A stretch of 56,787 nucleotides of DNA, the filler included, from Theionarchaea archaeon (GTDB taxonomy: Archaea > Methanobacteriota_B > Thermococci > Methanofastidiosales > SZ-28-30), in assembly GCA_018992565.1 (NCBI GenBank). It is 3 parts of 3 records of this genome, joined end to end, with 100 filler letters (N's around TTAATTAATTAA, not from the genome) between each part and the next. Parts side by side here need not be neighbours in the genome. Positions count along the whole stretch, not along the records: positions 38,602 to 56,787 come from JACVGW010000056.1; 2 more parts are not named here. One strand, given 5' to 3'. Under the pieces are notes generated by a model. It saw only the letters and a program-made list of their open reading frames with translations. It made no database searches and was not told the origin of the DNA. This document shows, piece by piece, positions 19,756 to 56,787 of this stretch; positions within the stretch are counted from its first letter, which is position 1, and every line of letters begins with the position of its first letter. Both the position numbers and the translations under genes were made by a program.

Positions 19756-19855
19756 NNNNNNNNNNNNNNNNNNNNNNNNNNNNNNNNNNNNNNNNNNNNT
19801 TAATTAATTAANNNNNNNNNNNNNNNNNNNNNNNNNNNNNNNNNNNNNNNNNNNN
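19756..19855. other. Artificial contig-joining linker (N44-TTAATTAATTAA-N44)
   Basis: A six-frame-stop palindrome embedded in Ns; the genes on both sides are truncated. Confidence 0.97.
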
Positions 19856-36908: not shown

Positions 36909-37145
36909 ATGGAAATGAGCGAAGAGGAGCTAATAGAACTGGACAGAGAAAACATCAGAATGGAAATGCGAGCTGCAGGGCTCCCCATTGACGAAGAAGA
37001 AGTGGAAAAGCTCAGGATAGCCATGCTCAAGGCGATGGTGCTTCGTACTATTGCTTCCGCTGCCCTGGTTCCCGAAACAGAAGATGAGGAAAAAGCCCAT
37101 CTACTGGAGGCAATCTATACCAATGCTCTGGCTTCTTTGCTCTAA
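36909..37145 (+). CDS. Small acidic helical hypothetical protein (78 aa)
   Basis: SD GCAGGTGA before ATG 36909; coherent amphipathic helical sequence. Confidence 0.65.
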   Translation: MEMSEEELIELDRENIRMEMRAAGLPIDEEEVEKLRIAMLKAMVLRTIASAALVPETEDEEKAHLLEAIYTNALASLL

Positions 37146-38386
37146 TTTCCAGGGTTCGTAAAAAAATCTTCTTCCAACCTTTGCCTTACTTTTTCATAAA
37201 AAGTCTCATACGGGAACTCAAGAGTCTGCCGTTCTTCATCATAATATTCCATCAGGATGCTTTGGCTCTTCCACCTGCCTGGAGGATTGCTGCGCATGGG
37301 GAACAACTTCCTGTCAACCAGTTCATCATACTGGTCAAGTTCAGTCATCAGTTTTCCTCCTAGGAAAGGGTCACCCACCGCATAGATTACACCATAGGGT
37401 TCCCCTCTTTCTACAGACTGAACCATACAGACTCTGGTGAAGATCCGTGTGTCTCTACCGAAGTTGAAGATGATGCGGTTAGTGGCTTCCACAGAATCAC
37501 ATCTCAGAAAAAGCATGAATCGAGAACATTTTGGGCCTGGAAATGGCCAGATGTAATACACCTTCTCCAGAATGTTCTTGTTCATCAGCTGCTGGTAGGC
37601 CTCCCTGAATTCCCTTAGCGAGAGATCCACATTCCTCAAATCTCTCAATTCAGCTTTCAACTCCTCTCTTTTTAGCTCCAGATGCTCTTTGCGAAGCAGT
37701 TCCTTTAATTCAGCCCTTCTTCTCTTCTTGAACTTCTTTTCAATGCGTACTATCCTCCTTAGATCGCATGCACCGTGACCATTCCATACGCGCATCAAGA
37801 GAATCTGAGCCACTTTGTTGAGAGCAATGCCAGAAAAGGACCCCCAATTTAGATCAGGAATGGGAACGTCCTCCAAGAGATGTCCAAAATCAGGTTCAGA
37901 AGAAGCTTCCGTACCATCAACTAAAAACGTAGGATTTATCAGTTTCCAATTTCCATCCAATTCAAAAAGATGATAGTATTTGATTATCTGGTTGTCTTTC
38001 AACAAATCAAGAATGCGTCTTAACCTATTGAGATCTGTATTCATGAATCCTACCATATATTTCCTGAAGATGCCTTCTTCAAGAGGAAAGAAGTAAGTCC
38101 AGCAGTTGATCTCCTGGAGCATGGAAATAATATATTCATAGGGACGATCAAACATGACAAAGGCAAATACTCGGGAGACCTTGTTTCTGAAGATTTTGCC
38201 GAAGTCGGGATACATATATGGACCTCCTAAATATTCTCTTCTTTCCAATTTTCTTTGTAACGTTGTCACATATTCCGTATATTTAAATCCGATAATACTG
38301 GAAAGCTCCTGATTCGTGAGATTTGGCTCCTGCCCCATCAATTGCAGCAACAGCTTCTCTCTTCTGGACAGATCCCTTCGCACCAT
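37142..38386 (-). CDS. wHTH regulator with apparent tandem Lrp/AsnC-like architecture (paralog of 40149-41225)
   Basis: N-terminal LSRREKLLLQLMGQEPNLTNQELS wHTH; shares GP(Y/F), I(N/D)CW..FP, NPxF, RIEK, PFP, NFGxDxR and FP(Y/F) with the paralog. Confidence 0.7.
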   Translation of the reverse strand: MVRRDLSRREKLLLQLMGQEPNLTNQELSSIIGFKYTEYVTTLQRKLERREYLGGPYMYPDFGKIFRNKVSRVFAFVMFDRPYEYIISMLQEINCWTYFFPLEEGIFRKYMVGFMNTDLNRLRRILDLLKDNQIIKYYHLFELDGNWKLINPTFLVDGTEASSEPDFGHLLEDVPIPDLNWGSFSGIALNKVAQILLMRVWNGHGACDLRRIVRIEKKFKKRRRAELKELLRKEHLELKREELKAELRDLRNVDLSLREFREAYQQLMNKNILEKVYYIWPFPGPKCSRFMLFLRCDSVEATNRIIFNFGRDTRIFTRVCMVQSVERGEPYGVIYAVGDPFLGGKLMTELDQYDELVDRKLFPMRSNPPGRWKSQSILMEYYDEERQTLEFPYETFYEKVRQRLEEDFFTNPGN

Positions 38387-38501: not shown

Positions 38502-38601
38502 NNNNNNNNNNNNNNNNNNNNNNNNNNNNNNNNNNNNNNNNNNNNTTAATTAATTAANNNNNNNNNNNNNNNNNNNNNNNNNNNNNNNNNNNNNNNNNNN
38601 N
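38502..38601. other. Artificial contig-joining linker (N44-TTAATTAATTAA-N44)
   Basis: Same linker as at 19756. Confidence 0.97.
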
Positions 38602-39690
38602 CAACGGAGCCAGTCCCCCAATACCATAACTGGTAAAGAAGCTCAGCCCATAGGCCCTCCCTCTCAACTCCACCGGTATACTCTCGGCAATCAATGAGTT
38701 CTGGACTGGCTGGAATGCATACACAGAAATCCCCAGGAGGGCAATAGAACCCGCAAGCAACAGTGAACTCCCAGCAAAAAAGAACCACATCAAAGCACCT
38801 GCTGAAACCGTGTTGAACACAATGAGCAGAGTCCTCTTGCTGTACTTATCCCCGGCCCATCCTCCTGCTGCCTGTCCCAGAATACCTGTGGCTTCTTTCA
38901 ACGTAACCAACGAGGCAGCCACAATCAAAGGCAAGAACTTCACCTCATTTATTATTGTAGGCAGAAAGTACATCAACCCATTAAAATACAACCCCTGAAA
39001 CGACGTCAATACAAGTAATATTCCAATATTCCTGTTCTCAAAGGGAATCTTCCCCATATCTTTCAACATATTACCAACAGTGTCCTCACGAACAGGTTCC
39101 TCCTTGAACTTCACAAAAAAGACGATAGCTGCTGCCACAAGAACCCCCGGGATAGCCCACAACATGTACGTGGTCCTCCATCCCAGCCCCAGGCCCACCA
39201 GGGAAATCCCCAGGACAGCCACCATCTCCGGAGAAGCCAGAAATCCCGTAAGGATGGGAGTAATGGCCTGTCCCATATTTCCCACAATCCCATGGATACC
39301 CATTGCCTTGGAGCGGTGTGCCTCAAATGCCTTAGAAACCAGTGATATCCCCGAAGGGTGGTACAGTCCTGCGCCAATACCCATGACAACAAAAAACAGG
39401 GCAAGCGTGGTCTTATTCCAGGCAAGCCCCACCAGGACTGCAGCTGCAGCACACAATACCATGGACAGAGCTGCCACCTTCCTGGAGCCAATCCGGTCAG
39501 AAAGAAATCCCGCAGGAATAGCATTGAGCCCGAATAAAAACCCAAGGAGAGAAGCAATGGCCCCGATCTCCGCAAAACTCATATCAAATTCTGCCATTAT
39601 CAAGGGCATCAGTATAGAAAATACTATCACATACGAATGATCAAGTGAATGAGCTAGTGATGTGAACACCAGGACTGACTTATGGTTCAT
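38602..39690 (-). CDS. MFS transporter (3'-truncated)
   Basis: Motif A GFLSDRIGSRK, GAGLYHP, GWAGDKYSKR, RGRAYG; multiple TM segments. Confidence 0.92.
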
Positions 39691-40148
39691 ACAATCACCT
39701 TTTAACCCACCTTAAAAACCTTGTGGATAGAAGATAACCAGGAAATGACCACTCACACTCACTCGCCACCCCTCAATGTCCCCATTTTTATAACTTTCTA
39801 CTGCGAAAAGTTTATATATAACCATCAACAATGAGGACTGCAGGAAAGGTGAGATGTTTTTCCTCCTTACTCTCCTTTCCTTTTTTTTCACCACTGCATC
39901 TCCTGATATTCCGAGTACCTGGTCTCATGTGCCCAGCTCTTCCTTTCATCCAGTTTACTTCTCACGATTCCTTTGTAAGAGCCAGAACGTGGTCTCAAGC
40001 ACTCGGTCTCCATGAAAACAGCTCTATCATGTCTTCATCAGAGCCACCTTGATCGTCCACAGGAGACTGAATACCTTTATATCTTATACCTCATTATATT
40101 CTGTGGAAACGAGGTAGAAGAGGAAGGGAACCTGAAGGAGGGTCTCAT

Positions 40149-41225
40149 GTGACTTTAAATGACACTGAAAAGAAGCTTCTCACCCTGCTTGGAAAAGATT
40201 GCTCACTTTCCAGGTCAAGACTGCAGCACTACCTGCAGTACAGAAGGATGAACACCGTGAGCAGCAAGATAGCCCACCTGAGAAAGGCAGGGTACATGAG
40301 AGGACCCTTCTACCATATTAACCTGAATGCAGTGGGGAAAAATCGCGTTTACAACATACTGGCTGAAATCAGGTTCGATCCCAGAGAGTACAGTTCTGCC
40401 TTTGAACTGGTCACTGTCATTGACTGCTGGGAATGGATTTTTCCTACCATGCAGGGAGATACTCTCTTTATTGTTTTCAGGTCCAACTACTATGCGTACC
40501 TCACACGGCTCCTTTCCCTCATCAAACAGGCGGGACTCATAACGTATGAGGTGCATTCTTCCCAGAATCGATGGTTTGTCCAGAATCCTGATTTCTTTGG
40601 GGAGATAATCCCGCAGGTCTCCAGTGGGTTCAAGGATGTGACTATTGACCTGGCGTACCCGGGACCGCACTCTGATATTTCGTGGAGGTTCATTGACCTG
40701 CAGGTGATGCAGTACTTGCAGGTGAAAACGTGTACTATCAGTGAAATACAGCGGATAGAAAAAAGAGTCTATGGACGGTTCTGGAGGCGCAGCCAGATCA
40801 AGTACAGCATGGAGAAGATCTGTGGGGCTGGAATTGCAGAAAGAAAACACTATAATATCTCTCCATTCCCCTGGGTTGAGAGCCTGGGGTTCTTACTACT
40901 GGTGGAAGGTGATCCAGAGGACGTGGTCAGATTCGTGGTGAATTTTGGCCAGGACTGCAGGATGTACAAAGCATATACAGTGTGCAGGGACATGGGATTT
41001 ATCTGGTGTGTCACAAGTCCACAGGTAGGACCTGAATTGATGAATACACTTGGGAGTCTCTCTCCACGGATTAATATCCGATGTCTCCAGCTGAAATCTG
41101 TCCACGACCCCCTGAAAAGGTCATTCAATGACGAGCACTTTGACATTGAGACGCAGCGGTGGACATTTCCCTTTGCGAAGTATAAGGAGGAGATCCAGGC
41201 CCTCATTGAAAAAAAAGAAAAATGA
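40149..41225 (+). CDS. wHTH regulator with apparent tandem Lrp/AsnC-like architecture
   Basis: wHTH LNDTEKKLLTLLGKD...VSSKIAHLRKAGY; second unit IDLQVMQYL...; SD GGAGGG; homologous to 37142-38386. Confidence 0.7.
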   Translation: MTLNDTEKKLLTLLGKDCSLSRSRLQHYLQYRRMNTVSSKIAHLRKAGYMRGPFYHINLNAVGKNRVYNILAEIRFDPREYSSAFELVTVIDCWEWIFPTMQGDTLFIVFRSNYYAYLTRLLSLIKQAGLITYEVHSSQNRWFVQNPDFFGEIIPQVSSGFKDVTIDLAYPGPHSDISWRFIDLQVMQYLQVKTCTISEIQRIEKRVYGRFWRRSQIKYSMEKICGAGIAERKHYNISPFPWVESLGFLLLVEGDPEDVVRFVVNFGQDCRMYKAYTVCRDMGFIWCVTSPQVGPELMNTLGSLSPRINIRCLQLKSVHDPLKRSFNDEHFDIETQRWTFPFAKYKEEIQALIEKKEK

Positions 41226-41255
41226 AAAGAGAGTACGTTCTTTTTCATGCCTGAT

Positions 41256-41351
41256 CTAGCAGGGACTGCCAGGGTCATCTCCTGGTTTTCCCCCTGAGGG
41301 GGTCACTCCCCCGAGAACATAAGGCAATCCAAGTGCGCCCATAGTGTACAT
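41256..41351 (-). CDS. Unannotated 31-aa Gly/Pro-rich peptide MYTMGALGLPYVLGGVTPSGGKPGDDPGSPC
   Basis: Strong SD GAGGTGA 4 nt before ATG and TATA box TTTTATATAT about 30-40 nt upstream. Below the ORF-track size cutoff. Confidence 0.65.
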   Translation of the reverse strand: MYTMGALGLPYVLGGVTPSGGKPGDDPGSPC

Positions 41352-41533
41352 TTTCTCACCTCATATGTCAATTTGAATACATATATAAAATCAATTTTGA
41401 ATTTATCAAGAAATAGTTGTTTTATTGTAATTTGCTTCAATAGAAGTCCTGATTCTTAATAGTTGTCTCATTTCTTGAGATTCTACCACTAGAAATGTTG
41501 GTACAGAGGACCTGCTTCACCTTGCGAATACGA

Positions 41534-42919
41534 TCACTCTGTATTCTCAGGAGAATCGTCCAGTACCATGAGATCTTCCATCTTGAATGTGGAGAGCTCT
41601 CTGTATCTCTTCTCAATCTCCTGTGACGTCCCCGTCTGCAGTGCCCGTAGATACGCCCCTTCCAGGAAGTCTCCTTTTTTCTTTCTGTCTATCTGCCTGA
41701 TGTTGTGTTCCACTTTTTTCATATCTGCAGGTTCATGCATTTCCCTGTAGAGGGCCAGGCTTTCCTCCCACACCGTCCTGGCTCTGTCCAAATCTTCCTT
41801 TCGGGCATAGCAGAGCCCTTCATTGTAGAGGGTTGAGGCTCTCCGGGATATGTTGCTACCTGCCAGGGTGAGGGCCTCAGAGAACAAGGTCAATGCTTCA
41901 TCAACATCATCATTCATGTAGAGACAGGAACCCAGATTGTTCAGAATATCAGACAGCAGCAACGGATCCTGGAAGGTCTGGAGAATCCTCTGGCACCTCT
42001 TGTAGTACTGCTCAGCCACCGTGTATTTTTCCTTCTTGAATGATACATTTCCCAGTCCTTTTAATGCATATGCTCTTCCCCGCATGTCTTCACATTCTTC
42101 ACAGATTCCCTCCATGCAAACGTAGAGCTCTTCTGCCTTATCCAGGTTATTCTTCAGTTCGTAGATGATACCCTGGTTGTACAGCACCCAGATACGCTGG
42201 GATGTCTCAAGACCATCCGGGATGCTGTGCTCCATGGCATAGAAAAGCGAACCATCATCCTCTTTTTGCTGGTCAGCCACTCTCCTGAGCACTTCCTTGA
42301 GGCTATTGTCCCATTCCTCTGCTGTACGCAGTTTCCGAGTCGCATCAATTCGTGTCATATAAAAGATCTCCTCCCCCTTCTTTGACAGCCTATACTGGTT
42401 TTGGTCAATATGACTCCGTTTCTTGTACTGGATATACCCCTTCATTCTCAGGTGTTTTATGTTCCGGTAGATATTTGCCCTGGATGTCCCCTTTATGTCA
42501 GGTAACGCGGTACGGAAATATGCTTCAATGTCCCCTGTGGTGGCCCTTCGGCTCGTTCCCACCACGTGGATGATGTGAAACATCACTTCCCAGGGCTTTG
42601 CTTCAAGTTCGGCCATGGCACTGGTGAGGGTCTCTTTGATGTGATGTCGCGAGTCTTCTGAAACCTGCTGGAAGGGTAGTCGTTCCTCAAAAAGGTTCAA
42701 TCCCCTGGAAGTCAGTGTGTAAAAGACAGGAATATCTTTTTTTTCGATTCGTTCCAGATATTCACCAATAAGAAGTCGCTGCAGCACTGTCTGAATCCTC
42801 TCGCCTCCCACGGTCTTCACCTGGTCTTTCAGAATTTTCCTCCCATGACGCCGTGCGAAGTCCAGTATATCAACCATGAGTTCAACATCTCGTTCCTCAT
42901 GGCTGCCGGGTGGAGTCAT
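41534..42919 (-). CDS. Double winged-HTH + TPR putative transcriptional regulator
   Basis: Two wHTH wings (YTLTSRG; SRANIYRNIKHLRMKGYI...YRLSKKG), then about 4-5 TPRs (LYNQGIIY, ALKGLGNV, ILNNLGSC, TLYNEGLCY). Confidence 0.82.
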   Translation of the reverse strand: MTPPGSHEERDVELMVDILDFARRHGRKILKDQVKTVGGERIQTVLQRLLIGEYLERIEKKDIPVFYTLTSRGLNLFEERLPFQQVSEDSRHHIKETLTSAMAELEAKPWEVMFHIIHVVGTSRRATTGDIEAYFRTALPDIKGTSRANIYRNIKHLRMKGYIQYKKRSHIDQNQYRLSKKGEEIFYMTRIDATRKLRTAEEWDNSLKEVLRRVADQQKEDDGSLFYAMEHSIPDGLETSQRIWVLYNQGIIYELKNNLDKAEELYVCMEGICEECEDMRGRAYALKGLGNVSFKKEKYTVAEQYYKRCQRILQTFQDPLLLSDILNNLGSCLYMNDDVDEALTLFSEALTLAGSNISRRASTLYNEGLCYARKEDLDRARTVWEESLALYREMHEPADMKKVEHNIRQIDRKKKGDFLEGAYLRALQTGTSQEIEKRYRELSTFKMEDLMVLDDSPENTE

Positions 42920-43027
42920 AGTCTTTTCTGGGAGTATTATTTAATATGGGTTTTGTCTCTTTGCAGAATTTGAGACTTTACTATAGAAAGAGCATTTATG
43001 TGATATATGACCACTGGTGCAGCTACT

Positions 43028-43450
43028 CTATGGATTTGATTTCTGGTTCATATTCTCCATGAAAAAGTCAATAATCTCCATAGATAACTCTGTTGAAACC
43101 TCTCTCTGTACCAGGAGGTCCAGCATCTCCTGTCTGAGGTTCTGGGTACCACGGTGTTCTTTCTGGTTCACCATGGTGAAGAGAAGGTAGAATGCATGAA
43201 TAACTCCCGGGGCCACGATGACATCGTGCTTACCCACCCGTGCAGGTGGTCCCTGTAATCCCCTGACTGTTGGTCCTCTCAGGTCCCGGGCTGCAGGCCT
43301 CTTCCCCCGGGCAACTGCACCACTCTGGAGGGCCTGTGTAAAGGTTTCCCACGCAATGTCAAAGGTTTGAGCTTCATCAGGATAGTATCTTTTCATGAAC
43401 TCACACGCATACTGCTTGACATGATCCATGATGCAGGGTTCTGTGTTCAT
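43028..43450 (-). CDS. Small hypothetical protein (140 aa): two helical blocks separated by an Arg/Gly/Pro-rich linker
   Basis: SD GGAGG before ATG 43450; linker ARGKRPAARDLRGPTVRGLQGPPAR. Confidence 0.7.
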   Translation of the reverse strand: MNTEPCIMDHVKQYACEFMKRYYPDEAQTFDIAWETFTQALQSGAVARGKRPAARDLRGPTVRGLQGPPARVGKHDVIVAPGVIHAFYLLFTMVNQKEHRGTQNLRQEMLDLLVQREVSTELSMEIIDFFMENMNQKSNP

Positions 43451-43606
43451 GAGAGTCCTCCCGATACAGACAGTACTTGATGTACTAGATATCACCAATT
43501 CTTTATAAGGTTTTTTGACTGGTTCTGGAGGTTGACAAAACCTATAATAATGTGGGATTGAATAGTACTGCAGTGTCAGACGTGAGAAATAGAGCGGGAG
43601 GTATGT

Positions 43607-46155
43607 ATGATTATCCACCCAAGAATCCTCTACCTGCTTTCTGCACCCCTGGTAGCTCTGGACGGCTGCCCATTAGATGCACTTGACATGGAATCAGAGC
43701 GAGATGTCATTGTGCGGGAACTGGCTGCCTGCAAGAAAGAGGTCCTGGTTCGCATTGGTCATGCCACCACAGAGGAACTGGCCAGGAGCATTGCAGAAGA
43801 ATTCAACATTCTGTATGTGAGCAGCCATGGGCGTGAGGAATTCCTCTTATTTGAGGACGGAAAGGGGGGAAGCCATGCTGTGACAGGTGACTACCTCAAA
43901 AGACTCATCCAGATGGGGGGGCCTTTTGAACTTGCTGTGGTCACAGCCTGTTATTCTGAGAAAATAGGTGAAATGCTTGTGGAGGCTGGTATCCGGCACG
44001 TTGTTGCTATAACATGCGACACCCCCGTGCTGGACCATGCAGCTATCGTTTTTGTGGGCCAATTCTTTCGCAGCCTTCTTCAAGGAGATTCTGTAAGAAA
44101 AGCATTTGAAATGGCCAGCCTCCTGGTGGAAGGAAATCCTGAATTGAAAAAAATAAAACCCCAGCTGGAGTTTTTGGCCTCAAGAAGGGGAATGCCATTT
44201 GTACCTGAAGAGGACAAGTTTGTCCTCCTTCCTTCAGACAGTGCTGTCCATGAGAACGTACTGCTCTCTGCAGAAGTCCCGGAGGGGGATCTCGTGGTGG
44301 AGGAACCTACAGGAAGAACCTTCCTCCTCCCGGTGAGACCACACTCCTTCACAGGGAGATCTTTGGAGATGTATGATATTATCAATGAACTGGGCATGGG
44401 GCGGCTTGTCACCATCACGGGAGTGGGGGGGATTGGGAAGACCATGGTCGCCATAGAAGTGGCCCGCTGGTTCTGCACACGGGCTCAATTCCCGGATGGG
44501 GTCTTTTATGTGGACCTGCGGCAGACAGACACTGTGGAGGGTGTTATTGATGTACTTGGGAGTGCACTGGGAGTGCAGTCAGCTGAGCTGGAAGATGTGG
44601 TTGTACATCTGGGTGGACGTCACGTCCTGCTGGTACTGGACAATGCTGAAGACATACTCTGGCAGGATGAACGTTCCATGCAGCAGGTTGTGGACTACAT
44701 CCTCAGGTTCACATCACATACCACCCTGCTGGTTACAAGCCAGCGCCCCGTTGGGGGAAACCTGCATGAATCAGAACATATCTATCGTCTGTGTTCCTTA
44801 GAACAGGATGATGCTGCCCTCCTCTTCCTCTTAACTGCAAGAAGAAGGCTCTTCAGGGAAGAATGGGAATCAGGGACGTTCTTAACGTTGATGGAGCAGC
44901 TGGGAGGGCATCCACTGTCTATTGTGCTCTCAGCATGTCAGCTGGTGCCAGGCGCAGCCCTGGAAGACCTGATGAAGAGGATAGGTCGGTACAGAGCAAG
45001 AGCATTCAAAGTGAGAGACATAACAGAGAGAGATAGAGACCACGGAGAAAGCCTGGTGGCCTCTCTGTCCTCAGCGTATGACAGCCTCTCTGATGACGCA
45101 AAGACCCTCTTTGGTGTGCTTTCTCTTCTGCCTGCTGGAGCGCAGGAGGAGATGCTCACGTCTATATGGGGGGATATGGCCTGGGAGTACATCCGTGAGT
45201 TGAATGAAGCCTCACTGGTGGAAATGAGAAATCGGCGGGCCACCCTGCTGCCACCTGTCAGGCTCTTCGCCACCACTGTGACAGGTGACGAGATCAGAAC
45301 CCAGTATGGCCCCAGGATTCTGGAATTCTTGGGAACGTACGTGAAGACACTGTACAAACACCATACTGCAGGTGACGCACGGGAGTATCGGTCCTGTTTT
45401 TCTGTGGATGAACCAAATCTCCGTTCTGCCATTCATCTCCCCTGTGAACCTCCTCAAACAGAAAAGGAACGTTCAGCCATTGGATTGCTGTCACCTCGCC
45501 TCATGTACCTATATTTCTACCATGACAGGCTAAAGGAGGCCAGAGAAGTTGGCGAGAGAATGTTATCTATCCTCGAGGGACTGCATGATCACGTGGGTAG
45601 GGCAGATACATTGCTGGTCTTGGGACTGGTTTCGGTGGAGAGAGGTGACCTAGAAGAGGCCCGATTGCAGTATGAAACAGCTCTCTCAATCTATGAGGAG
45701 GTTAGAGATACTAAGTGGGAGGCAAACACGCTCTGGAAACTGGGCGGGCTCTTCATGCTGTCAGGTGATTTTGGAAAGGCTCAATCCACGTATGAAAGAG
45801 CTCTCAGGATGTATCATCAGATTGATGAGAACCTGGGGGAAGCAAATATCCTCCAGGACCTGGGTGACCTCCTCATGCTGTCAGGTGATTNNNNNNNNNN
45901 NNNNNNNNNNNNNNNNNNNNNNNNNNNNNNNNNNNNNNNNNNNNNNNNNNNNNNNNNNNNNNNNNNNNNNNNNNNNNNNNNNNNNNNNNNCACTATAGAG
46001 CAGTGCAGTGGCTCATCCTGTACGCAGTTCAGCTCAGAACTCAGAATCTTGAAGAAGGTGCCATGATGTGCCTGGAATATGCTGGAGAATTTGCAGCCAG
46101 AGCACGAAATCAGTCCCTTCAATCACAAGTTGAGCAGCACCTCGGGAAAACATAG
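43607..46155 (+). CDS. CHAT (caspase-like) protease - STAND/NB-ARC NTPase - TPR protein, interrupted by a scaffold gap
   Basis: CHAT dyad YVSSHG...LFED...VTACYS; FTGR; Walker A GVGGIGKT; Walker B LLVLDNAE; VTSQR; GHPL; 40-aa TPRs. After the gap an open frame HYRAVQW...EQHLGKT* (45991-46155) is the likely true C-terminus. Confidence 0.88.
45891..45990. other. 100-N scaffold gap within TPR repeats
   Basis: Run of N. Confidence 0.97.
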
Positions 46156-46276
46156 TACAGAATCCTCCGTACATATCCTTGTAGAATACTACGAGTTCAC
46201 TCTGCATTCTCGCTTTCGAACTGGAACGAATTTGAACGGGGAAGAAAATGAAGGAAAAAATTGCCTTTCTTTACTG

Positions 46277-47605
46277 TCATGAAGGCAGCCAGTTCTTGAT
46301 GCTGTTGGAAGCCTCATCTACCAACGTTGTAGAACACTGCAGCAATTCAGTAGCCTCTCCCAGGTACTGAGCAGCCAATGTGGCAGCCGAGTTGAGGTCT
46401 TGTCCGTTCGGTGGAGATACCTCCTTTTTGAGTGTTTCAGCTCTTTTTCTAAGATCAACTTTCATCCCGTGGTATATGTCTGCTCTTTCAATGAATTTCC
46501 TTCTAAATTCAACTGCACGTGAGCTATTCTTTCCAATCTCCTCATCATATGCCAGCAAGATATTGTAGGTAAGCCCGATCATGCCTCCTGGATGCTCTGG
46601 TTCCGTCGGCCACACCTCTTCGGTAACCGCCCTGTTTTCCAGGTTGCAGGCACTTATAACTACTGAGCAGCAGCTCTTTATAGTGTTCTCGTCATGAGAG
46701 CCTGCATCGCGTGCCTGTGTGGCGAAGCCATTGATATTGATTTCCGATCGTGAGGCCTCGCTTGGGACACCTGCTGAATCAGAGGCCATCTCCATGCAGC
46801 GGATGGTGATTTCTCCCATAGGCATTGGCCTCTTTTCATTGGGTGTAGTCCCGGGTCCGTGAAGACTGGTAAATCCTGACTCAGGAGAGCTCGGTTCCTC
46901 GTAGACACTTCTTGCCATCCCAAGAATGTTCTGCGCCAAATCCACAACAGAAACCACAAGACTGTCACTGTCTATTCCTATTTCAGAAACAGAGGCTACC
47001 ATTTCCTCTTTCACGTAGTCTCTCCCGGGACTCGCTATTGCTGCCTCTGTTCTCGGAATAATACTGAATAAAAGGTAGGAGACTGTCTGCATGGTATTTC
47101 TCAACCGTTTAAGGACTGCCTCTGCATCCAGCCTGATCTTCTTTTCTGCACCATCAATAAGCTGTCTATTGAACCTTCTAGTTTCTCTTTGAAATTCTTC
47201 TGTCACGTTCTCACCTCCTTTGCAGCGATACCAGAGTGATCCAACCCCCATCAACTTCAGTATGAAAATGATCACAGCTGCCAGGAGTAATCCCAAGAAA
47301 ACAGCAGATATATCCCAGACCACTGTCATACACGAGACGCTGAGAGCCTCTTCCTCAGCCCCACAGAACCCCTGCAATGCAGTATGAAGATCTGCCCGTA
47401 AAGCAGCACAGGAAAAAGCCATCACCAGCCCGTCATATGTAGCAGCTGCACTCCACCTGAGCACATCCGCCTTGGGACCTGAGAATCCAGTAACCCACAG
47501 GTTCAGCCTCTCATTCAGAACTATTTCTGTGAAAAAGACAGCGGAAATAAGACAAACTATGTCTGTGCCGCAGCACGTAACCTGCATAAATCCAGCACAT
47601 TCCAT
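46277..47605 (-). CDS. Hypothetical protein: hydrophobic N-terminal part plus helical C-terminal domain (possibly two fused genes)
   Basis: SD GGAGGT before ATG 47605; a second perfect SD GGAGGTGA precedes an in-frame GTG at 47206. Confidence 0.55.
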   Translation of the reverse strand: MECAGFMQVTCCGTDIVCLISAVFFTEIVLNERLNLWVTGFSGPKADVLRWSAAATYDGLVMAFSCAALRADLHTALQGFCGAEEEALSVSCMTVVWDISAVFLGLLLAAVIIFILKLMGVGSLWYRCKGGENVTEEFQRETRRFNRQLIDGAEKKIRLDAEAVLKRLRNTMQTVSYLLFSIIPRTEAAIASPGRDYVKEEMVASVSEIGIDSDSLVVSVVDLAQNILGMARSVYEEPSSPESGFTSLHGPGTTPNEKRPMPMGEITIRCMEMASDSAGVPSEASRSEININGFATQARDAGSHDENTIKSCCSVVISACNLENRAVTEEVWPTEPEHPGGMIGLTYNILLAYDEEIGKNSSRAVEFRRKFIERADIYHGMKVDLRKRAETLKKEVSPPNGQDLNSAATLAAQYLGEATELLQCSTTLVDEASNSIKNWLPS

Positions 47606-47895
47606 CCTGATACCTCCTGCTAATTGCCGCGCAATTCTCTTCATACTTCTACTGGTTATTGGAAATATTTCTATTTAAGCCTTTCTACTTTCTGAATATT
47701 CAATTACCGGACTATTGAATGAACTTTAACAGGGTTGATGTTCACACTGTGAAGAGAAATAGATAGCTCTTGCATGAGATGTTGGCAGCCTGGAGTAATC
47801 TCGAGAAAGAAAAGTGAAGGAAAGACTGAATTTCAGGTGCACAGGTGGACCATTTGTGAGAATGGCGACTTTTCGCGGAATGAAGCAGATTTCTC

Positions 47896-48072
47896 TTAAT
47901 CTAATTTCTCAACAATAAGGAGGAAATCTACACGATGCCACCACAAGAATTTTAGAGTAATATTCGGGACTATTGCCACGACCTCTCCTTTCAGGCCATT
48001 GAGGAACTGCTCCAACCTGCTCTGATCTTTTGCCATATCGATATCAAATCGGTGGACTCTGTATGAATTCAA
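47896..48072 (-). CDS. Small hypothetical protein (58 aa) missed by the ORF track
   Basis: TTG start after GGAGATGA; MNSYRVHRFDIDMAKDQSRLEQFLNGLKGEVVAIVPNITLKFLWWHRVDFLLIVEKLD has a beta-alpha-beta protein-like pattern. Confidence 0.7.
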   Translation of the reverse strand: MNSYRVHRFDIDMAKDQSRLEQFLNGLKGEVVAIVPNITLKFLWWHRVDFLLIVEKLD

Positions 48073-48237
48073 CTTTCATCATCTCCTTTCATGATCTACT
48101 CTTGAAAAGGATCTATGACTTAAAAAGATTCCCCAGTTTTTTGACAGAAATGGGGTAAATGACATGAGAAATGACTCTTTCCCACAATGCAACACAGGGT
48201 ACATTCATTTAGGTTGGGCACCCGAATGAGGCGAAAA

Positions 48238-49659
48238 TCAGGTCTTAATTCCTCTCTTTCTCCTTCGTATCTTCCTCACGTAGTACACCAGTGGATTCTT
48301 GACCCGCAGCAGTACTAGAACATCATCCTTGTGGAGGTTATGCAGTATCCTGTTCACTTCTCCCAGATTCACACCTGAGGCTTCCACGATCTTCTGGGGG
48401 TTCCTGGTCCTCTTGAGGGTTAAGAGCACCTTTTGTGCATCTCCTGTATTGCTGCTGATGAGCTGGTCCAGTCTCGTGCGATCTGCTATTGCATAAATCC
48501 CCTGGAGACACAGCTCGTCTGGCTTACAGAGAGAAGGTGCATTCTGCTTGACTTTGGCGCAACTGGGAGGGAGGTACCATTTTGATGCACCGAAATCCCC
48601 GGGAGAAGGAGATTCAGAAAGGCCAAATCCCAGGTGGTAGAAAACATTTGCCTGCTCAATGGGCTGGTCCTGAAACAAAGGGGGATCACACTTATTACCT
48701 GCTTCGATGATCAGGGGAGCTACTTCCTCCAGAATGATCTCAACCTGCTCAGGAGAGAGTTCAGGTTTCTTTTCCTGGTCAAATGCAGTCAGGGAAGGAT
48801 ACACCCTGGCATAGGATAGAAAAGCAGTCAGCAAAACGGTAATAGCATAATTTCTCAGTCCAGAGGATGTGCCCTGCAGGGCCTCCCTGACGCAGGGAGG
48901 AAATGCGCTTTCATCAAAGTCTGCAGCCCCCACAGGCGCTATTGACACAGCAGGAACTTCAGAAGAAATAAGGTTCAGTATCTTGGCGAACACAGGAGGA
49001 AGGGCAACATGCTGGGTTCTGTGTTCCTCCCGTTTCTCATCTATATATGCCTTCAGAGCTTTGGTAAGCAACTCCAGGTACACATCAATGAGCTGTGATC
49101 TGGTGAGAGGAATCCACCCTCCCACGATGTAATACTGGGTAAGGTCAGAATCAGCAACATCTACCCAGCGCACTGCATACTGCAGATGGTCTCCCTCAGG
49201 CACCAGACGGAAAACGTCTTCCCGTGGAATTGTGATTTCTGTTTCAGAAAGAGTGCAAAGAGAGGAAATACCTTTCATAGCGTCCAGGACGTCCAGCCTG
49301 ATTTTCTGGTTGTCGAGCGCATACCATAACCTCTCTCGTATGGGTTCCACTACCATTTTCACAACCAACCCTGCCTCACGAGAATGAGAACCCTTCCTGG
49401 CAACAGATACCAGGGGGAAGAGCTGGTAGAGAACCTCCTTTGAGGGATCAGTCTCAATTGTAGTACTTCTCCGGGTATCCTCAGAATCCGAGGTCATATC
49501 AGAAAGCCTTTTCTTGATTTCGGGGACAATATCCTTTTCCTCATAGTGAGTATTCTCAAGCATGGACTTATAGATGGGATCCAGTGGATTGATCAAGATT
49601 CGCTCTTCAGGGAGAAATAATTGCTTTCTGAACCACTCTGCCTCACCATACTTCACCAC
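48238..49659 (-). CDS. priL: DNA primase large subunit, Thermococcales-type
   Basis: Fe-S C-terminal domain motifs FPPCVREALQG..GLRNYAITVLLTAFLSYAR, CDPPLFQDQP, YHLGFG, WYLPPSC...LCKPDELC, KNPLVYY. Confidence 0.88.
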   Translation of the reverse strand: MVKYGEAEWFRKQLFLPEERILINPLDPIYKSMLENTHYEEKDIVPEIKKRLSDMTSDSEDTRRSTTIETDPSKEVLYQLFPLVSVARKGSHSREAGLVVKMVVEPIRERLWYALDNQKIRLDVLDAMKGISSLCTLSETEITIPREDVFRLVPEGDHLQYAVRWVDVADSDLTQYYIVGGWIPLTRSQLIDVYLELLTKALKAYIDEKREEHRTQHVALPPVFAKILNLISSEVPAVSIAPVGAADFDESAFPPCVREALQGTSSGLRNYAITVLLTAFLSYARVYPSLTAFDQEKKPELSPEQVEIILEEVAPLIIEAGNKCDPPLFQDQPIEQANVFYHLGFGLSESPSPGDFGASKWYLPPSCAKVKQNAPSLCKPDELCLQGIYAIADRTRLDQLISSNTGDAQKVLLTLKRTRNPQKIVEASGVNLGEVNRILHNLHKDDVLVLLRVKNPLVYYVRKIRRRKRGIKT

Positions 49660-50024
49660 GTGACCACCTTATGGGAAAGCCTGCTGCCATCCCGGGCATA
49701 GAACTGGATACTCTGTTCTGTATAGGGAAACCCAATTATGGCATGATACTTTCCAAAGACAGAGAAGAACCGCAGATCGCTGGGAGAAGGGGTAACATTC
49801 GCAGAAGGATGAGAATGAGCAGTTCCACTAACAGAAGAATCAATAGGGAGGTTCCAGTAGTTGACGATAGAGCCTGTCTTACCGAATATAGTCCCGGGAA
49901 CCAACAAAATCTCAGTAATCACTCCCTTTTGTTCTCTCAAGAACCCTGCAAATTCATCAGGATGTGTGCTCTTACAGGCGTGGAGCAGAAATTCCAGCGT
50001 TTCATCCTCTATCTGGACTTCCAT
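49653..50024 (-). CDS. JAMM/MPN+ (Mov34) metalloprotease
   Basis: HPDEFAG Glu and the JAMM motif HSHPS...PSPSD. Confidence 0.9.
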   Translation of the reverse strand: MEVQIEDETLEFLLHACKSTHPDEFAGFLREQKGVITEILLVPGTIFGKTGSIVNYWNLPIDSSVSGTAHSHPSANVTPSPSDLRFFSVFGKYHAIIGFPYTEQSIQFYARDGSRLSHKVVTW

Positions 50025-50239
50025 GTAGGTTCTGTACTGTCGAAAATTATAAAGGTTGCCCTGCAAAGAAATGAAAGAGCACTGGTAATCTGGTTCAAGC
50101 CAGAACAAGGGCGAGACACCAGATTCAATAGAAAAGATGGCCGTTGAAAATGGAGTATTCCAGGCAACACGTTATGGGAAATCGAAGAAGATGGTTGTCA
50201 TCAAAGCTCTGAAAGCTTCTCGGAACCCTGACTCGCCTT

Positions 50240-50521
50240 CTAGGACTCTGAAAAGTGATTTTCTTTTATGTAATTGTAATATTCTTCATATGAGTATGTG
50301 CAATCGAGATAGTCCAGAAATCGCCTGTTAGACATGTGGAGTTGCTTTGCCATTTTGGAAAGGAGTTTCTTGCTGATTTCACTATGAGAAGACCCCCTAC
50401 TCACTATGGTACTCACAGCTATTTTTCGGTCAACTTTCATGGAGTATATTTCATGATTGCTGCCCTCGCTTCTCTCGAAACCCTTATTCGTTAAAGCGGA
50501 TCTTATCTTACGGATTTTCAT
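50240..50521 (-). CDS. HicA-like toxin
   Basis: Small basic protein; LTNKGFERSEGSNHE (catalytic His) and EISKKLLSKMAKQL. Confidence 0.72.
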   Translation of the reverse strand: MKIRKIRSALTNKGFERSEGSNHEIYSMKVDRKIAVSTIVSRGSSHSEISKKLLSKMAKQLHMSNRRFLDYLDCTYSYEEYYNYIKENHFSES

Positions 50522-50540
50522 GCAAATCACGATCAAATTC

Positions 50541-51611
50541 CTAGCTGAAGATCTTGATGAGTTTTTCTTTTATCTTTAGAGTTCTTTCGGACAATTCATT
50601 GTCTGGAACTTTCCTATAGAACAAAAAATATTCATACAGGTCCTCTTCGAATACCTTTCTTGCTTTTTCAACAGTATCATCTACTCCTACTACTCCCAGC
50701 TCCTCATTGCTCACTACCCAGAAATCATCTTTGTCATCGTACTTCTCAAATGATACTTCAGCTCGTATTGGTTCCTTCAGCAGATTCTCACCGATGTGGT
50801 CAATTATGAGCTCTGCGTTTTCTTCAATTCCGTCTATCTCTATGACTTCAGCGTACTTCTTCTTTGTTCCCACTCCAAACACCTTGACGGGGACTCTCTC
50901 AGTTAAAAATCTGATGACTTTCGTCCTTCGTTCCCTGGGTAGGCTTATCTTCGAAAGCCTGTTATCAAATGTTTTTATCCAAAAGACAGGATCAGGTGAA
51001 TCATCTTTCAACCTGACAATAACACCCTCGACTTCTAATCTGTCTGTCTCAATCTCTTCCTTCAAACCATCGGAAACACGATCTTTCAAGATCTTCTTAT
51101 TCATTTCAATGGCAACAGCCTGCCCTGCGGAGTCCTGGAAGATTATACTTTCCTGGATTTTATCCCCTGGAAGCAGTTCATTCAAATAGTTGAAGACTGT
51201 GAATCTGGCTGAATGGTCAGGTATGAGGTCTCTGACTTTGGATCGGTAGTCTCTTCCTCCATCCTGCAGGGAAACCAGCAATTCCTGCAATTTGTAGAAA
51301 ACATTCTCCTGTCTTGATTTCATCTCTGGAGATTCATCACTCGGATGCAACATAAGTTGCTCATGGAAAGTGGACATCCTCAGAACTACACTCCCTTCCT
51401 CGAATGAGACTCTTAGAGAATACCTGTCTTCTATGTTCTTTGTTCTCCTGCCATACATTCGACCTTCTTGGTCATAGTATTGTCCCAAAGAATAGACCAA
51501 TCCCTGAAAATTCAATAAGATGTTTCCAATGAGCTCTGCAGGTGCTCTGTCAATGGAGATATTATCTCCTTCAATTTTGTATAACACAGTCAGAGTATCC
51601 TTCATTTTCAT
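50541..51611 (-). CDS. Large hypothetical protein with C-terminal HicB-like antitoxin domain
   Basis: C-terminal FWVVSNEELGVVGVDDTVEKARKVFEEDL resembles the HicB core; lies immediately upstream of the hicA-like gene. Confidence 0.6.
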   Translation of the reverse strand: MKMKDTLTVLYKIEGDNISIDRAPAELIGNILLNFQGLVYSLGQYYDQEGRMYGRRTKNIEDRYSLRVSFEEGSVVLRMSTFHEQLMLHPSDESPEMKSRQENVFYKLQELLVSLQDGGRDYRSKVRDLIPDHSARFTVFNYLNELLPGDKIQESIIFQDSAGQAVAIEMNKKILKDRVSDGLKEEIETDRLEVEGVIVRLKDDSPDPVFWIKTFDNRLSKISLPRERRTKVIRFLTERVPVKVFGVGTKKKYAEVIEIDGIEENAELIIDHIGENLLKEPIRAEVSFEKYDDKDDFWVVSNEELGVVGVDDTVEKARKVFEEDLYEYFLFYRKVPDNELSERTLKIKEKLIKIFS

Positions 51612-52049
51612 GCAATGGCCTTCGTTTCTTATTACAGAAAGAACATATAAATCTGTTGGTACAAACGACTAATGAAAAGGATTACTGGCAGAAGAATTAG
51701 GATTCATCAGGATAAAAATTCCTTACTCTATGACCCAAAACAGTGCCTAATTAGAGAATTCACGAGCACTATGATCACTCGAATCCTTGATCATCAGCTT
51801 CTTGAAGGGCCTGTACACCCTCATCCCTCCGCCATTCAGCAAAGGTGGATCAGAAACGTCTGGGGAATTGATGGTTGAGAATTCGAACACGAAATGTGCA
51901 ATTCTATTCTATCCAGGTTCGCGAATCTCGAGATAGAAAAGTGAGAAATTCGTGAAGAGTGTTCAACAATTCTCTACATTCAGAATTTCGAATCCATAGT
52001 CCATAGAAAACTACTTATAGATCTCTATCCTGCCTGTGCACGGTGTAAC

Positions 52050-52579
52050 ATGTATCAGCAGAACATCATCACTGCTTTGCTGCTCACCACTGCAGCAGGC
52101 CTCTCCACAGGCATAGGGAGTGCCATTGCCTACTTTATAAGAAATCCCAAGATGAAGTATCTCTCTTTTTCCCTGGGACTCTCAGCAGGCGTGATGATCT
52201 ACATATCATTCATGGAGCTCCTTCCCAGTGCAATACAGGGAATAGGTGAGCCCTGGGCTGTCCTGATTTTCTTTGGAGGGATTGCACTAATCGGAGTAAT
52301 TGACTGGCTTATACCTGAATCCAAGAATCCCCACGACTACAAAGGACCTGCAGAGATTGAAATCCCTGGAGGAGGTTCTGCATCCAGCCAGCTCATGAGG
52401 ACTGGTGTTCTGACTGCCATTGCCATTGGAATCCATAATTTTCCAGAAGGACTTGCCACCTTCGGCATGGCTCTCACCAATGTAAATCTGGGTGCAATTG
52501 TTGCAGTAGCTGTTGCCATCCACAATATTCCTGAGGGAATCTCAGTGTCTGTACCCATATTCTATGCCACCAAGAGCAG
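52050..52579 (+). CDS. zupT: ZIP family zinc transporter ZupT (truncated by gap)
   Basis: Motifs AGLSTGIG, SAGVMIYISF.ELL, AIGIHNFPEG, AIHNIPEGISVSVP. Confidence 0.93.
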
Positions 52580-52679
52580 NNNNNNNNNNNNNNNNNNNNN
52601 NNNNNNNNNNNNNNNNNNNNNNNNNNNNNNNNNNNNNNNNNNNNNNNNNNNNNNNNNNNNNNNNNNNNNNNNNNNNNNN
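52580..52679. other. 100-N scaffold gap
   Basis: Run of N. Confidence 0.97.
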
Positions 52680-52713
52680 TCACAACACCTCTCAGACCCA
52701 CTCAAAGGATAGG

Positions 52714-52753
52714 TTTAAATACTCGAATTTTAGTTTTTAGTAAAAAGTAAAAT
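52714..52753 (+). promoter_or_regulatory. TATA box (TTTAAATA) followed by a 27-bp near-perfect palindrome (probable operator)
   Basis: ATTTTAGTTTTTA-G-TAAAAAGTAAAAT at 52727-52753 has one mismatch and lies just before the regulator start. Confidence 0.65.
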
Positions 52754-52755
52754 AT

Positions 52756-53307
52756 GTGATCAAGATGATTGAAATAGACGTACGCAGGCTCCTGTCCTCT
52801 TTCGCCAAAATGTCAAAACAGTGGGGGATAGGAGAATCAGCAGGAAATGTCTGGGGTTTTTTGCTCTATGAAGCCAGACCACTGTCCCAACGACAAATCG
52901 AAGAGAATATCAAGTTCAGCAGAGGACTCATCAGCAGAAGCCTCACCAGGCTCGTTGATCTGGGGATAATTGAGAAATTCAAGAAAGGGAGGGAATCTTA
53001 CTATTCTTCAGATATCTCCTTGGTGGGTGGATTCGACAAGATTATGGAGAATTTTCTGAAAACTGAAATAGAACCTGTTATGAACTACCTGTCGAAAAAC
53101 CTGAACAGAACAGAAGATGAGACTACTCAGGAGAAGATTCGCAGGATGATAGGCGAATACGAGAAACTGGTTACCGGAATCCAGGTTTTTTCCAAAATTA
53201 TGAAAAGATATTCCTCTCCTGATGCTAGAATTCCTACCCAGGCTGAAATAGTAAAAGTGTTTGAAAATCACTTCAAGAGCCGCCAGAAAAGTACAGATGG
53301 GTGCTGA
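52756..53307 (+). CDS. GbsR/MarR-family wHTH transcriptional regulator
   Basis: WGIGESAGNVWGFL....PLSQRQI....FSRGLISRSLTRLVDLGII...RESYY. Confidence 0.82.
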   Translation: MIKMIEIDVRRLLSSFAKMSKQWGIGESAGNVWGFLLYEARPLSQRQIEENIKFSRGLISRSLTRLVDLGIIEKFKKGRESYYSSDISLVGGFDKIMENFLKTEIEPVMNYLSKNLNRTEDETTQEKIRRMIGEYEKLVTGIQVFSKIMKRYSSPDARIPTQAEIVKVFENHFKSRQKSTDGC

Positions 53308-53455
53308 AATGACTTCTGGGAATATCCCGGGAATGAATCGCAGTGATGTACAGGAAGGACGAAAGATGAATCCAGAATTCCCGAGCGATTTTCTTTCACT
53401 ACTCTCCATCAGGTTGACAGGGAGCATGCGCGGATTCTGTCTGGAAGGTGATTGA

Positions 53456-56390: not shown

Positions 56391-56596
56391 CCAATGGAAC
56401 TGGCTGGACGACGTCTGACTTTCAGAAGGTAATCCCAACTCACCTCACGTTCTGATGGTGTTATTGATCAACCTGCTGGACGTGAGAGCAGCAGTACAGT
56501 AACCTGAGCTGACAGAACATTTATATACGGGCATCGAATTCAACTCATTGTCCGTTGATACAACGGTAAATCTGCTCTGAGATCCAGGAGAGTACC

Positions 56597-56787
56597 ATGA
56601 ATGTGCTGAAGAAAGACGAAGGAAGGCTCTGCGGGCTGTTCTATATCCATACAGCTCTGGACGCTACATTTGCCGTGGTGTGGATATACTGGATGGTTTA
56701 TCTCCTGGACCGGGGATTTTCATACAGTGTCATTGGGCTGGCCCTGGCAGTGAATGGAGGTCTAATGGCTGTGCTGGAAGTCCCCAC
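56597..56787 (+). CDS. MFS transporter N-terminus (truncated at window end)
   Basis: SD AGGAG; MNVLKKDEGRL...YLLDRGFSYSVIGLALAV...VLEVPT. Confidence 0.72.
   Translation, partial: MNVLKKDEGRLCGLFYIHTALDATFAVVWIYWMVYLLDRGFSYSVIGLALAVNGGLMAVLEVP

Follow-up and report, generated by a model that had tools for sequence, protein, structure and literature searches.

A conserved micro-peptide gene beside a double Lrp/AsnC-fold regulator gene in Theionarchaea: a candidate archaeal regulator-peptide unit

RESULTS

The locus and the genomes compared

In a stretch of 56,787 nucleotides from a Theionarchaea metagenome-assembled genome (MAG), that of an uncultured archaeon from sediment, referred to here as the window, we examined a tiny open reading frame (ORF) and the two putative regulator genes on either side of it. 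The micro-peptide gene occupies 41256..41351 on the minus strand, consists of 31 codons and a TAG stop codon (41258-41256), and encodes MYTMGALGLPYVLGGVTPSGGKPGDDPGSPC. On the plus strand, at 40149..41225, lies the gene for a 358-aa protein with a double Lrp/AsnC fold (double-Lrp), which stands tail-to-tail with the peptide gene, the two stop codons being 30 nt apart. Directly upstream of the peptide gene, on the minus strand at 41534..42919, is the gene for a 461-aa regulator that joins two winged helices to tetratricopeptide repeats (TPRs), called HTH-TPR below after its helix-turn-helix (HTH) and TPR parts. The sequence-only reading of this DNA had proposed that the peptide and the HTH-TPR protein may be an archaeal module of the RRNPP kind, and the features from which it started (the ORF at 41351-41256, the motif GAGGTGA, an A/T box and the upstream double-winged-helix/TPR gene) are all present.

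The window consists of contigs C141, C142 and C144 of the genome G000 (88% complete), joined at 19756-19855 and 38502-38601 by N runs with 12-base spacers. The peptide module lies on C144 (window 38602-56787), while positions below 38602 belong to the other contigs and imply no adjacency in the genome. For comparison we used a sister species (G032), order-level searches covering 34 genomes, in which those of genus g3 (n = 4) are 69-92% complete, and a set of metagenome and genome loci collected with an HTH-TPR profile (L-numbered), from which L028, a Gemmataceae TPR protein, was excluded as unrelated. The protein and contig matches carry the names Theionarchaea or 'Candidatus Methanofastidiosia'.

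Conservation of the micro-peptide gene

A Shine-Dalgarno-like GAGGTGA (41356..41362, minus strand) stands 4 nt before the ATG of the peptide gene, and the other peptide genes that, like this one, encode no leader keep GAGGTGA or AGGTGA at 4-7 nt upstream of their ATG. A translated search of the own genome located a second copy of the peptide on contig C17 (E 6.7e-4), where the three genes are arranged alike, and a third copy, on C115, was reached via the HTH-TPR paralogues in G000. A third match of the translated search (C144:590-676, E 0.78) falls inside an MFS gene region and was taken as chance. G000 thus has three paralogous peptide modules; all of them have orthologues in G032, where none lacks the peptide gene. 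The peptides are distinct between modules and fixed between the two species, the C-terminal 15-22 residues being identical within each orthologue pair despite differences in the DNA.

The character of these differences is informative. Pooled over the three orthologue pairs and counted by the Nei-Gojobori method, the last 15 codons contain 12 synonymous and no non-synonymous differences (proportions pS 0.34 and pN 0), and the ratio pN/pS in the N-terminal part of the peptide is 0.39. Frame, start codon, ribosome site and stop codon are preserved in 17 loci with differing DNA, and the 17 aligned leaderless peptides give the consensus MYxxGxxG[LF]PD[LI][LI]Gx[IV]xPCGG[IV][PE]GDDPxTP[CG], in which P18, G21 and G24 are common to all and D25 to most. 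A population variant at 41302 (G>A), carried by one run's contigs and by some from a second, changes T17 to I, a residue at which other family members differ too. Because there are three paralogous modules with sister-species orthologues, 12 synonymous against no non-synonymous differences, and a conserved ribosome site, the 31-codon ORF is, judging from its sequence, a genuine gene of a lineage-specific micro-peptide family, as the sequence-only reading had anticipated in calling it a peptide gene with a promoter of its own.

The functional part of the peptide is most likely its C-terminal ~15 residues, on the strength of the codon comparison. The sequence-only reading had assigned a leader role to the N-terminal half and a ligand role to the Gly/Pro-rich C-terminal half; what holds of this is that constraint falls on the C-terminal half, which is also the case in pro-peptides. 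Its statement that the peptide lacks a classical signal peptide agrees with inspection of the 31-aa form, in which no signal-like hydrophobic N-terminus was seen. A role of the ORF as leader peptide or attenuator was rejected, as no gene follows on its strand.

The double-Lrp gene is the constant neighbour of the peptide gene

Every peptide gene that we found adjoins a double-Lrp gene, almost always tail-to-tail, with 7-36 nt between the stop codons in the 8 loci measured. A peptide profile built from genus-g1 and metagenome peptides only and run over the 34 genomes of the order gave nine matches at E<0.01, all nine beside a double-Lrp gene; six of these are the profile's own sequences, and the independent ones are G004:C193, G033:C7 and G000:C147. 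Six weaker matches (E 0.09-0.98) are not beside double-Lrp genes. When 17,071 frames from the collected loci were searched locally with hmmsearch, all peptide matches lay no more than ~110 nt from a double-Lrp frame or overlapped one, a linkage that holds where the DNA reaches far enough (L050 ends before) and that is circular for the profile's own members. The same search gave no peptide match in HTH-TPR loci without a double-Lrp gene, and the HTH-TPR loci that lack a peptide gene lack a double-Lrp gene as well.

The pair also occurs with no HTH-TPR gene nearby, at no fewer than six loci (G033:C7, G033:C26, G000:C147 and those of G004, G001 and G003). G033 has two such pairs and no HTH-TPR gene within the flanks examined. 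Genus g3 shows a variant arrangement in which the peptide gene lies between two double-Lrp genes and overlaps the stop codon of one of them; the peptide is MFELFDIKIGRILPCDGVPGGDDGSL in G004, related ones occur in G001 and G003, no peptide gene was seen in G002, and the HTH-TPR profile found no member in any of the four genomes. At G000:C147 a form of the peptide with a signal-peptide-like N-terminus is encoded divergently from its double-Lrp gene, with which it shares an intergenic region of 66 nt. Together, the double-Lrp gene is the constant genomic partner of the peptide in all loci found, and the link to HTH-TPR is facultative.

At one metagenome locus (L033:5554-5649 and 6224-6319) two peptide genes stand in tandem, the first of them adjoining an apparent remnant of a double-Lrp 3' end, which points to duplication of the regulator gene's 3' end together with the peptide gene.

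The 358-aa partner has a duplicated Lrp/AsnC fold

An AlphaFold model of the 358-aa protein (predicted local distance difference test score, pLDDT, 92.8) consists of a winged helix and a RAM-like beta-alpha-beta-beta-alpha-beta domain, this unit occurring twice in the chain. At E<=0.1 the sequence matches none of the Pfam families, including HTH_AsnC-type, HTH_24 and AsnC_trans_reg. In Foldseek the best match of the model is NirDL (4ch7; E 9e-9, template modelling (TM) score 0.48/0.54), and more than 25 Lrp/AsnC structures match it at E 1e-5 to 1e-3. As modelled, the protein is a member of Lrp/AsnC by fold and divergent by sequence; some sources annotate its relatives as 'Lrp/AsnC family'.

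The family is present in 10 of the 34 genomes of the order, with ~10 paralogues in G000, and it is restricted to the lineage: a hidden Markov model (HMM) search found 19 representatives at E<=1e-30 among 1.84 billion, and other two-unit proteins were reached only at E 1e-7 to 1e-3. Conservation peculiar to the family is seen in the linker and in the C-terminal tail, and the family-invariant residues include N146/P147, W142, W179, W212, R271, K274 and W338. Language-model look-alikes (Atlas, scores 0.88-0.93) come from many archaeal phyla and have 350-415 aa, some of them with HTH_24 or HTH_AsnC, and serve as a lead only.

Two further genes near the double-Lrp gene in the window should be mentioned. 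Divergent from it lies an MFS transporter gene (38602-39690, minus strand) that is cut by the contig end and is shared with the sister-species locus L024 and not with the other modules. A double-Lrp paralogue at 37142-38386 is on a different contig and hence is not a neighbour of the module.

Longer relatives resemble exported pro-peptides

Beside other double-Lrp genes we found ORFs of 64-69 aa (G000:C115:5746-5940 on the minus strand, L027:7899-8093, L062:1124-1333 and L092:1498-1692) in which a basic, hydrophobic N-terminus and a conserved C-terminus enclose a variable middle. One group of them ends in ...VPGSDPEHPK in G000, G032 and, with variation, G033, and the long ORF of G000:C147, which is matched by the peptide profile, ends in ...DGIPGGAPGTPG. 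Between G000 and G032 the last 11 codons of such an ORF differ by 5 synonymous and 0 non-synonymous changes and the hydrophobic core by 4 and 0, the middle being highly variable. Judged by inspection, this layout resembles that of a Sec-type pro-peptide. Opp-type binding proteins occur in the genome, PF00496 (SBP_bac_5) giving 8 matches above cut-off in at least 7 genes of G000, a count that speaks to presence only.

Candidate regulatory DNA

Upstream of the peptide gene lie two conserved A/T-rich boxes, the first of which, TTTTATATAT (41381..41390, minus strand), is TATA-like and conserved across loci, the second (~41398-41420, minus strand) being an alternative TATA candidate; we infer a promoter role for these boxes from their sequence and position. 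Further upstream, 115 nt from the ATG of the peptide gene, a 15-bp palindrome, TCTCAAGAAATGAGA (41466..41480), is a candidate operator. Each of the modules A, B and C has a related palindrome ahead of its peptide gene, and one stands upstream of all three leaderless genes of G000; in L034 the two arms have changed together (TCTTAG..CTAAGA). Allowing no more than 1 mismatch, TCTCAAnnnTTGAGA occurs 16 times in the genome where ~7.6 occurrences are expected from base composition; three of these are the promoters of the leaderless peptide genes, and four others that we inspected are all inside long ORFs. Past the stop codon of the peptide gene a T-rich run (41209..41230, minus strand) extends over the final codons of the double-Lrp gene, which is convergent with it. 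Archaeal genes may end in oligo-T terminators, and on this basis the run is a putative archaeal terminator.

The HTH-TPR gene has an element of its own (42938..42975, minus strand), made up of TCTCA (42975-42971), AAWTTYTGC and the TATA-like CATATTAAATA (42948-42938), the last of these ~20 nt before the ATG, a spacing which suggests that the HTH-TPR mRNA is leaderless. Of 15 distinct HTH-TPR loci 14 carry the element, among them some that have no peptide gene. Its likeness to the palindrome of the peptide promoter, seen by eye and in one 14/17 repeat (L030) among many chance-level repeats, is weak.

HTH-TPR is a facultative neighbour found in one genus

In the 461-aa protein Pfam places TPR_1, TPR_2 and TPR_12 over residues ~240-400 (E 1e-17 to 1e-19), and HTH_34 is sub-threshold (25.1 bits against a cut-off of 27) over residues 144-186. 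The AlphaFold model, made with 68 relatives (pLDDT 87.5), has winged helices at 6-77 and 109-186, a long helix, four TPRs at 239-394 and two capping helices. The sequence-only reading had drawn attention to inward-type Asn residues in the motifs YNQG, NNLG and YNEG; all three motifs are present, and N327 and N366, together with K287, are invariant in the 68 members of the family, but the Asn of YNQG is not. These invariant Asn and Lys residues are kept also in the members without a peptide gene. The top Foldseek matches are LGN/Pins, KLC, STAND TPR and designed TPRs, with NprR (5dbk) at rank 32 (E 1.3e-5), and generic TPRs are at least as close to the modelled fold as RRNPP receptors are. By sequence, the relatives are a lineage-restricted family of 68 clusters followed by generic TPR proteins.

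HTH-TPR genes occur in 3 of the 34 genomes, all three in the genus of the window. The tree contains 19 distinct HTH-TPR loci, one of which ends too early to be assessed; the proposal that peptide genes accompany the HTH-TPR paralogues is correct for 11 of the remaining 18, with three cognate-looking pairs per genome, and fails for the other 7, in which the peptide gene is absent. A 'C'-type HTH-TPR, separate from the main peptide-bearing clade (see Discussion) and nested among peptide-less relatives, has another small gene and ~700 nt before the peptide gene, and on the tree peptide adjacency requires at least two changes. Complex prediction with the TPR part (residues 195-461, 68-row alignment) and the peptide (13-row alignment) gave scores of 0.02 and 0.06 against a mark of 0.32, which we weigh neither for nor against binding. 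On sequence evidence the best reading is that the pair of peptide and double-Lrp genes has been supplemented by HTH-TPR in one genus, as a clade-specific addition.

Several neighbours of the HTH-TPR gene are worth recording. At 43028..43618 (minus strand) lies a gene for a small protein of no known family with the motif 'YPDEAPYF(D/H)IAWE', whose true start is probably internal to the frame; elsewhere the protein has ~120-150 aa (e.g. L006:1102-1473, minus strand), the longer frame in the window carrying a Pro/Arg/Gly-rich insert. This 'YPDEA' gene accompanies most HTH-TPR genes, upstream or directly downstream and sometimes 4 nt after the stop codon, and its product, for which we found no Pfam match and no usable Atlas lead, could be a general ligand or partner of the TPR. 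Divergent from it, an ORF of 819 aa (43607-46066, plus strand; with an N run inside) has CHAT protease, NB-ARC/NACHT and TPR domains and looks like a STAND-type protease module, with orthologous neighbours in L029 and L030-L032. Finally, a 258-aa open frame at G000:C22:2796-3230 (plus strand) is similar only to the N-terminal winged-helix part of HTH-TPR (E 1.5e-11, 32% identity, residues 28-185) and may be a TPR-less paralogue.

DISCUSSION

A proposed regulator-peptide unit with the double-Lrp protein at its core

The reading that we favour, tentatively and at a little less than an even chance, is that the conserved unit is the tail-to-tail pair of peptide and double-Lrp genes, which would form a core regulator-peptide unit to which HTH-TPR was added in one genus, and that the peptide feeds back on the regulator. 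In such a model the peptide would be transcribed from its own promoter, preceded by the 15-bp palindrome to which one of the neighbouring regulators would bind. The active part of the peptide would be its C-terminal ~15 residues (P-x-G-G-x-[PE]-G-D-D-P-x-T-P-C/G), and this part would act back on the regulator as a ligand or co-factor. The prime candidate target would be double-Lrp, by way of its RAM-type ligand domains, and it is the more likely target of the peptide because it is the only universal partner. The leaderless forms of 25-33 aa might act directly in the cytoplasm, and the relatives with a signal-peptide-like N-terminus might act after export and re-uptake. The DNA binding at the palindrome, the binding of peptide to regulator and any export are predictions of this model.

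A number of observations speak against this model. The known ligands of Lrp/AsnC RAM domains are amino acids, and we know of no peptide ligand for them. The peptides of G001 and G003 were identified from synteny and visual inspection, the g1 peptide profile having missed both and a wider profile having missed that of G003 as well, and the palindrome was not seen upstream of the genus g3 peptides. Distant double-Lrp paralogues are mostly without a recognisable peptide gene (5 of the 10 in G000, and those in G002, G024, G025 and G030), and none was seen beside the close paralogue at G033:C209. With regard to export, the leaderless 25-33-aa peptides have no export signal, a Peptidase_C39 exporter gene was not found in G000 at its 88% completeness, and among the loci read the module contains no conserved exporter, protease or modifying enzyme. 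Finally, the HTH-TPR tree has a clade (support 100/98) in which the peptide gene is directly downstream in 9 of 9 assessable loci, at a distance of 182-305 nt in most of them, and in this clade of strict adjacency HTH-TPR could be the sensor.

Alternative explanations

One alternative is that the ORF is a chance frame in an intergenic terminator, or part of an antisense RNA or another non-coding element serving the convergent genes; in its favour, a transcript of the ORF would extend into the double-Lrp gene from its 3' side. No RNA or protein evidence for the ORF was obtained from the data covered, in which the metatranscriptome run X20 contains 8% of the sampled words of a 3.6-kb stretch and its sole contig (40380-40678) is within the double-Lrp gene. 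The absence of non-synonymous differences from the last 15 codons and the preservation of frame, start, ribosome site and stop in 17 loci are nevertheless hard to reconcile with a non-coding element, and Rfam gave no family at threshold for 40000-44000 (the sole match, psRNA6, has 19.3 bits where the gathering score is 60 and was taken as chance). We consider this explanation highly improbable. A more serious one, though still unlikely in our view, is that the peptide is simply a regulated product, an exported or cytoplasmic effector (metal-binding, antimicrobial, adhesive or a modified precursor), with the regulators acting as local transcription factors that receive no feedback. Lrp-type regulators commonly adjoin their target genes, the divergent layout at G000:C147 with its shared 66-nt intergenic region is a classic regulator-target arrangement, the palindrome before the peptide genes fits a regulated promoter, and the relatives with a signal-peptide-like N-terminus point to an extracellular role. 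Yet a tail-to-tail arrangement with 7-36 nt between the stop codons, kept across two genera, is unusual for a plain regulator-target pair, each paralogous regulator retains a distinct peptide, which looks like cognate pairing, and the neighbourhoods share no gene for a modifying enzyme, an exporter or immunity. The neighbours of the module are the two regulators, the 'YPDEA' small protein, the MFS transporter and the CHAT/NB-ARC/TPR protein, with no modifying enzyme of the type that acts on ribosomally synthesised and post-translationally modified peptides (RiPPs) among them and none conserved in the orthologous or paralogous loci; a RiPP precursor was therefore rejected as first choice, as no enzyme gene is conserved nearby.

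The proposal with which the locus came to attention makes HTH-TPR the cytoplasmic receptor, with the peptide in an Asn-lined groove of the TPRs and double-Lrp a bystander or downstream target. It gains from the peptide genes downstream of 11 of 18 HTH-TPR genes and from the invariable adjacency in one clade, from three HTH-TPR/peptide pairs per genome whose peptides are module-specific and fixed between species, and from the invariance of N327, N366 and K287. The modelled fold resembles the peptide-binding TPRs of LGN and KLC, and NprR is among its matches, if at rank 32; the HTH-TPR promoter element resembles the palindrome by eye and in one 14/17 repeat, and Opp-type uptake genes are in the genome. 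Against it, the seven HTH-TPR loci without a peptide retain the same invariant Asn and Lys, six or more peptide loci have no HTH-TPR, including those of a genus where none was found, and the adjacency needs two or more changes on the HTH-TPR tree. Moreover, the protein has two winged helices rather than an XRE-type HTH and only four TPRs with a cap, and the peptide has no signal peptide. We regard this proposal as distinctly unlikely, and return to the core pair of peptide and double-Lrp as the model that we prefer.

A bolder extension of the preferred model, which we hold to be possible but doubtful, is that the loci represent a distinct archaeal signalling class, in which a micro-peptide, leaderless or Sec-exported, is sensed by the RAM domains of double-Lrp; in Theionarchaea the TPR regulator would be wired into the same promoter, and the whole would be a counterpart of RRNPP on a different receptor fold. 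Full-text literature searches returned, in the portions of the texts available to them, no report of archaeal peptide-based cell-cell signalling or of an RRNPP-like system in archaea, and a secreted small molecule in Haloferax volcanii is described as the first characterised archaeal quorum-sensing system (PMC13286277). If double-Lrp does sense the peptide, the ligand range of the very widespread Lrp/AsnC/RAM fold would extend from amino acids to peptides. The loci in any case provide a micro-gene that annotation had passed over and that purifying selection constrains very strongly, together with partners that look cognate and candidate DNA sites, and hence a concrete test set, and they indicate that genes of ~30 codons are being missed in the annotation of archaeal MAGs.

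Comparison with known systems

Each half of the 358-aa protein resembles members of Lrp/AsnC, with target-normalised TM scores of 0.6-0.71 to PH1519 (2cyy/2e1c), ST1022 (2e7w), E. coli AsnC (2cg4), Lrp (2gqq) and M. tuberculosis LrpA (2qz8). It differs from these in consisting of two fused units with no Pfam match at E<=0.1, in belonging to a lineage-restricted family, and in being encoded beside a peptide gene. The siroheme decarboxylases NirDL and AhbA-AhbB (4ch7, 4czc) share the fused double Lrp/AsnC fold and are the best structural match. However, identity to the 358-aa protein is only 10-12% and the root-mean-square deviation ~8 Å, no haem-pathway genes are in any neighbourhood read, and the 358-aa family has ~10 paralogues per genome, a number that suits a regulator rather than a pathway enzyme.

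The RRNPP(A) cassettes of Bacillota and their phages comprise Rap-Phr, NprR-NprX, PlcR-PapR, Rgg-SHP, ComR-ComS and AimR-AimP; most of the regulators have an XRE-type HTH, and some shp genes are convergent to their rgg gene. The module described here is similar to these cassettes in that the gene of a cytoplasmic regulator lies beside a tiny, separately promoted ORF, that constraint on the peptide falls on its C-terminal part, that several paralogous regulator-peptide pairs occur per genome alongside Opp-type uptake genes, and that there are both leaderless forms and forms with a signal-peptide-like N-terminus. HTH-TPR, too, combines DNA-binding and TPR domains, a match of architecture only. 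The differences are equally clear. The host is an archaeon, and the constant partner is a doubled Lrp/AsnC fold (winged HTH plus RAM) and not a TPR protein, whereas HTH-TPR, in which two winged helices are joined to four TPRs, can be missing from the pair, was not recognised as homologous or structurally closest to the known receptors, and does not consistently co-occur with the peptide (11 of 18 adjacent, 7 absent). The peptides are rich in Gly, Pro and Asp and carry a conserved motif of ~15 residues, in contrast to the short and variable pheromones of RRNPP(A), and those pheromones are exported, processed and receptor-bound, steps that are hypothetical for the peptides here.

The module is therefore RRNPP- or Rgg/SHP-like in its layout and fails as such a system on receptor homology and on strict co-occurrence of receptor and peptide. 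The sequence-only reading is in this sense partly supported: the layout, the constraint on the C-terminus of the peptide and the presence of Opp genes speak for an RRNPP-like module, while the HTH-TPR protein that it made the receptor is not the constant partner and has a fold that is not closest to RRNPP. What the locus and its relatives present is a regulator-peptide cassette with a different constant partner, the double-Lrp protein.

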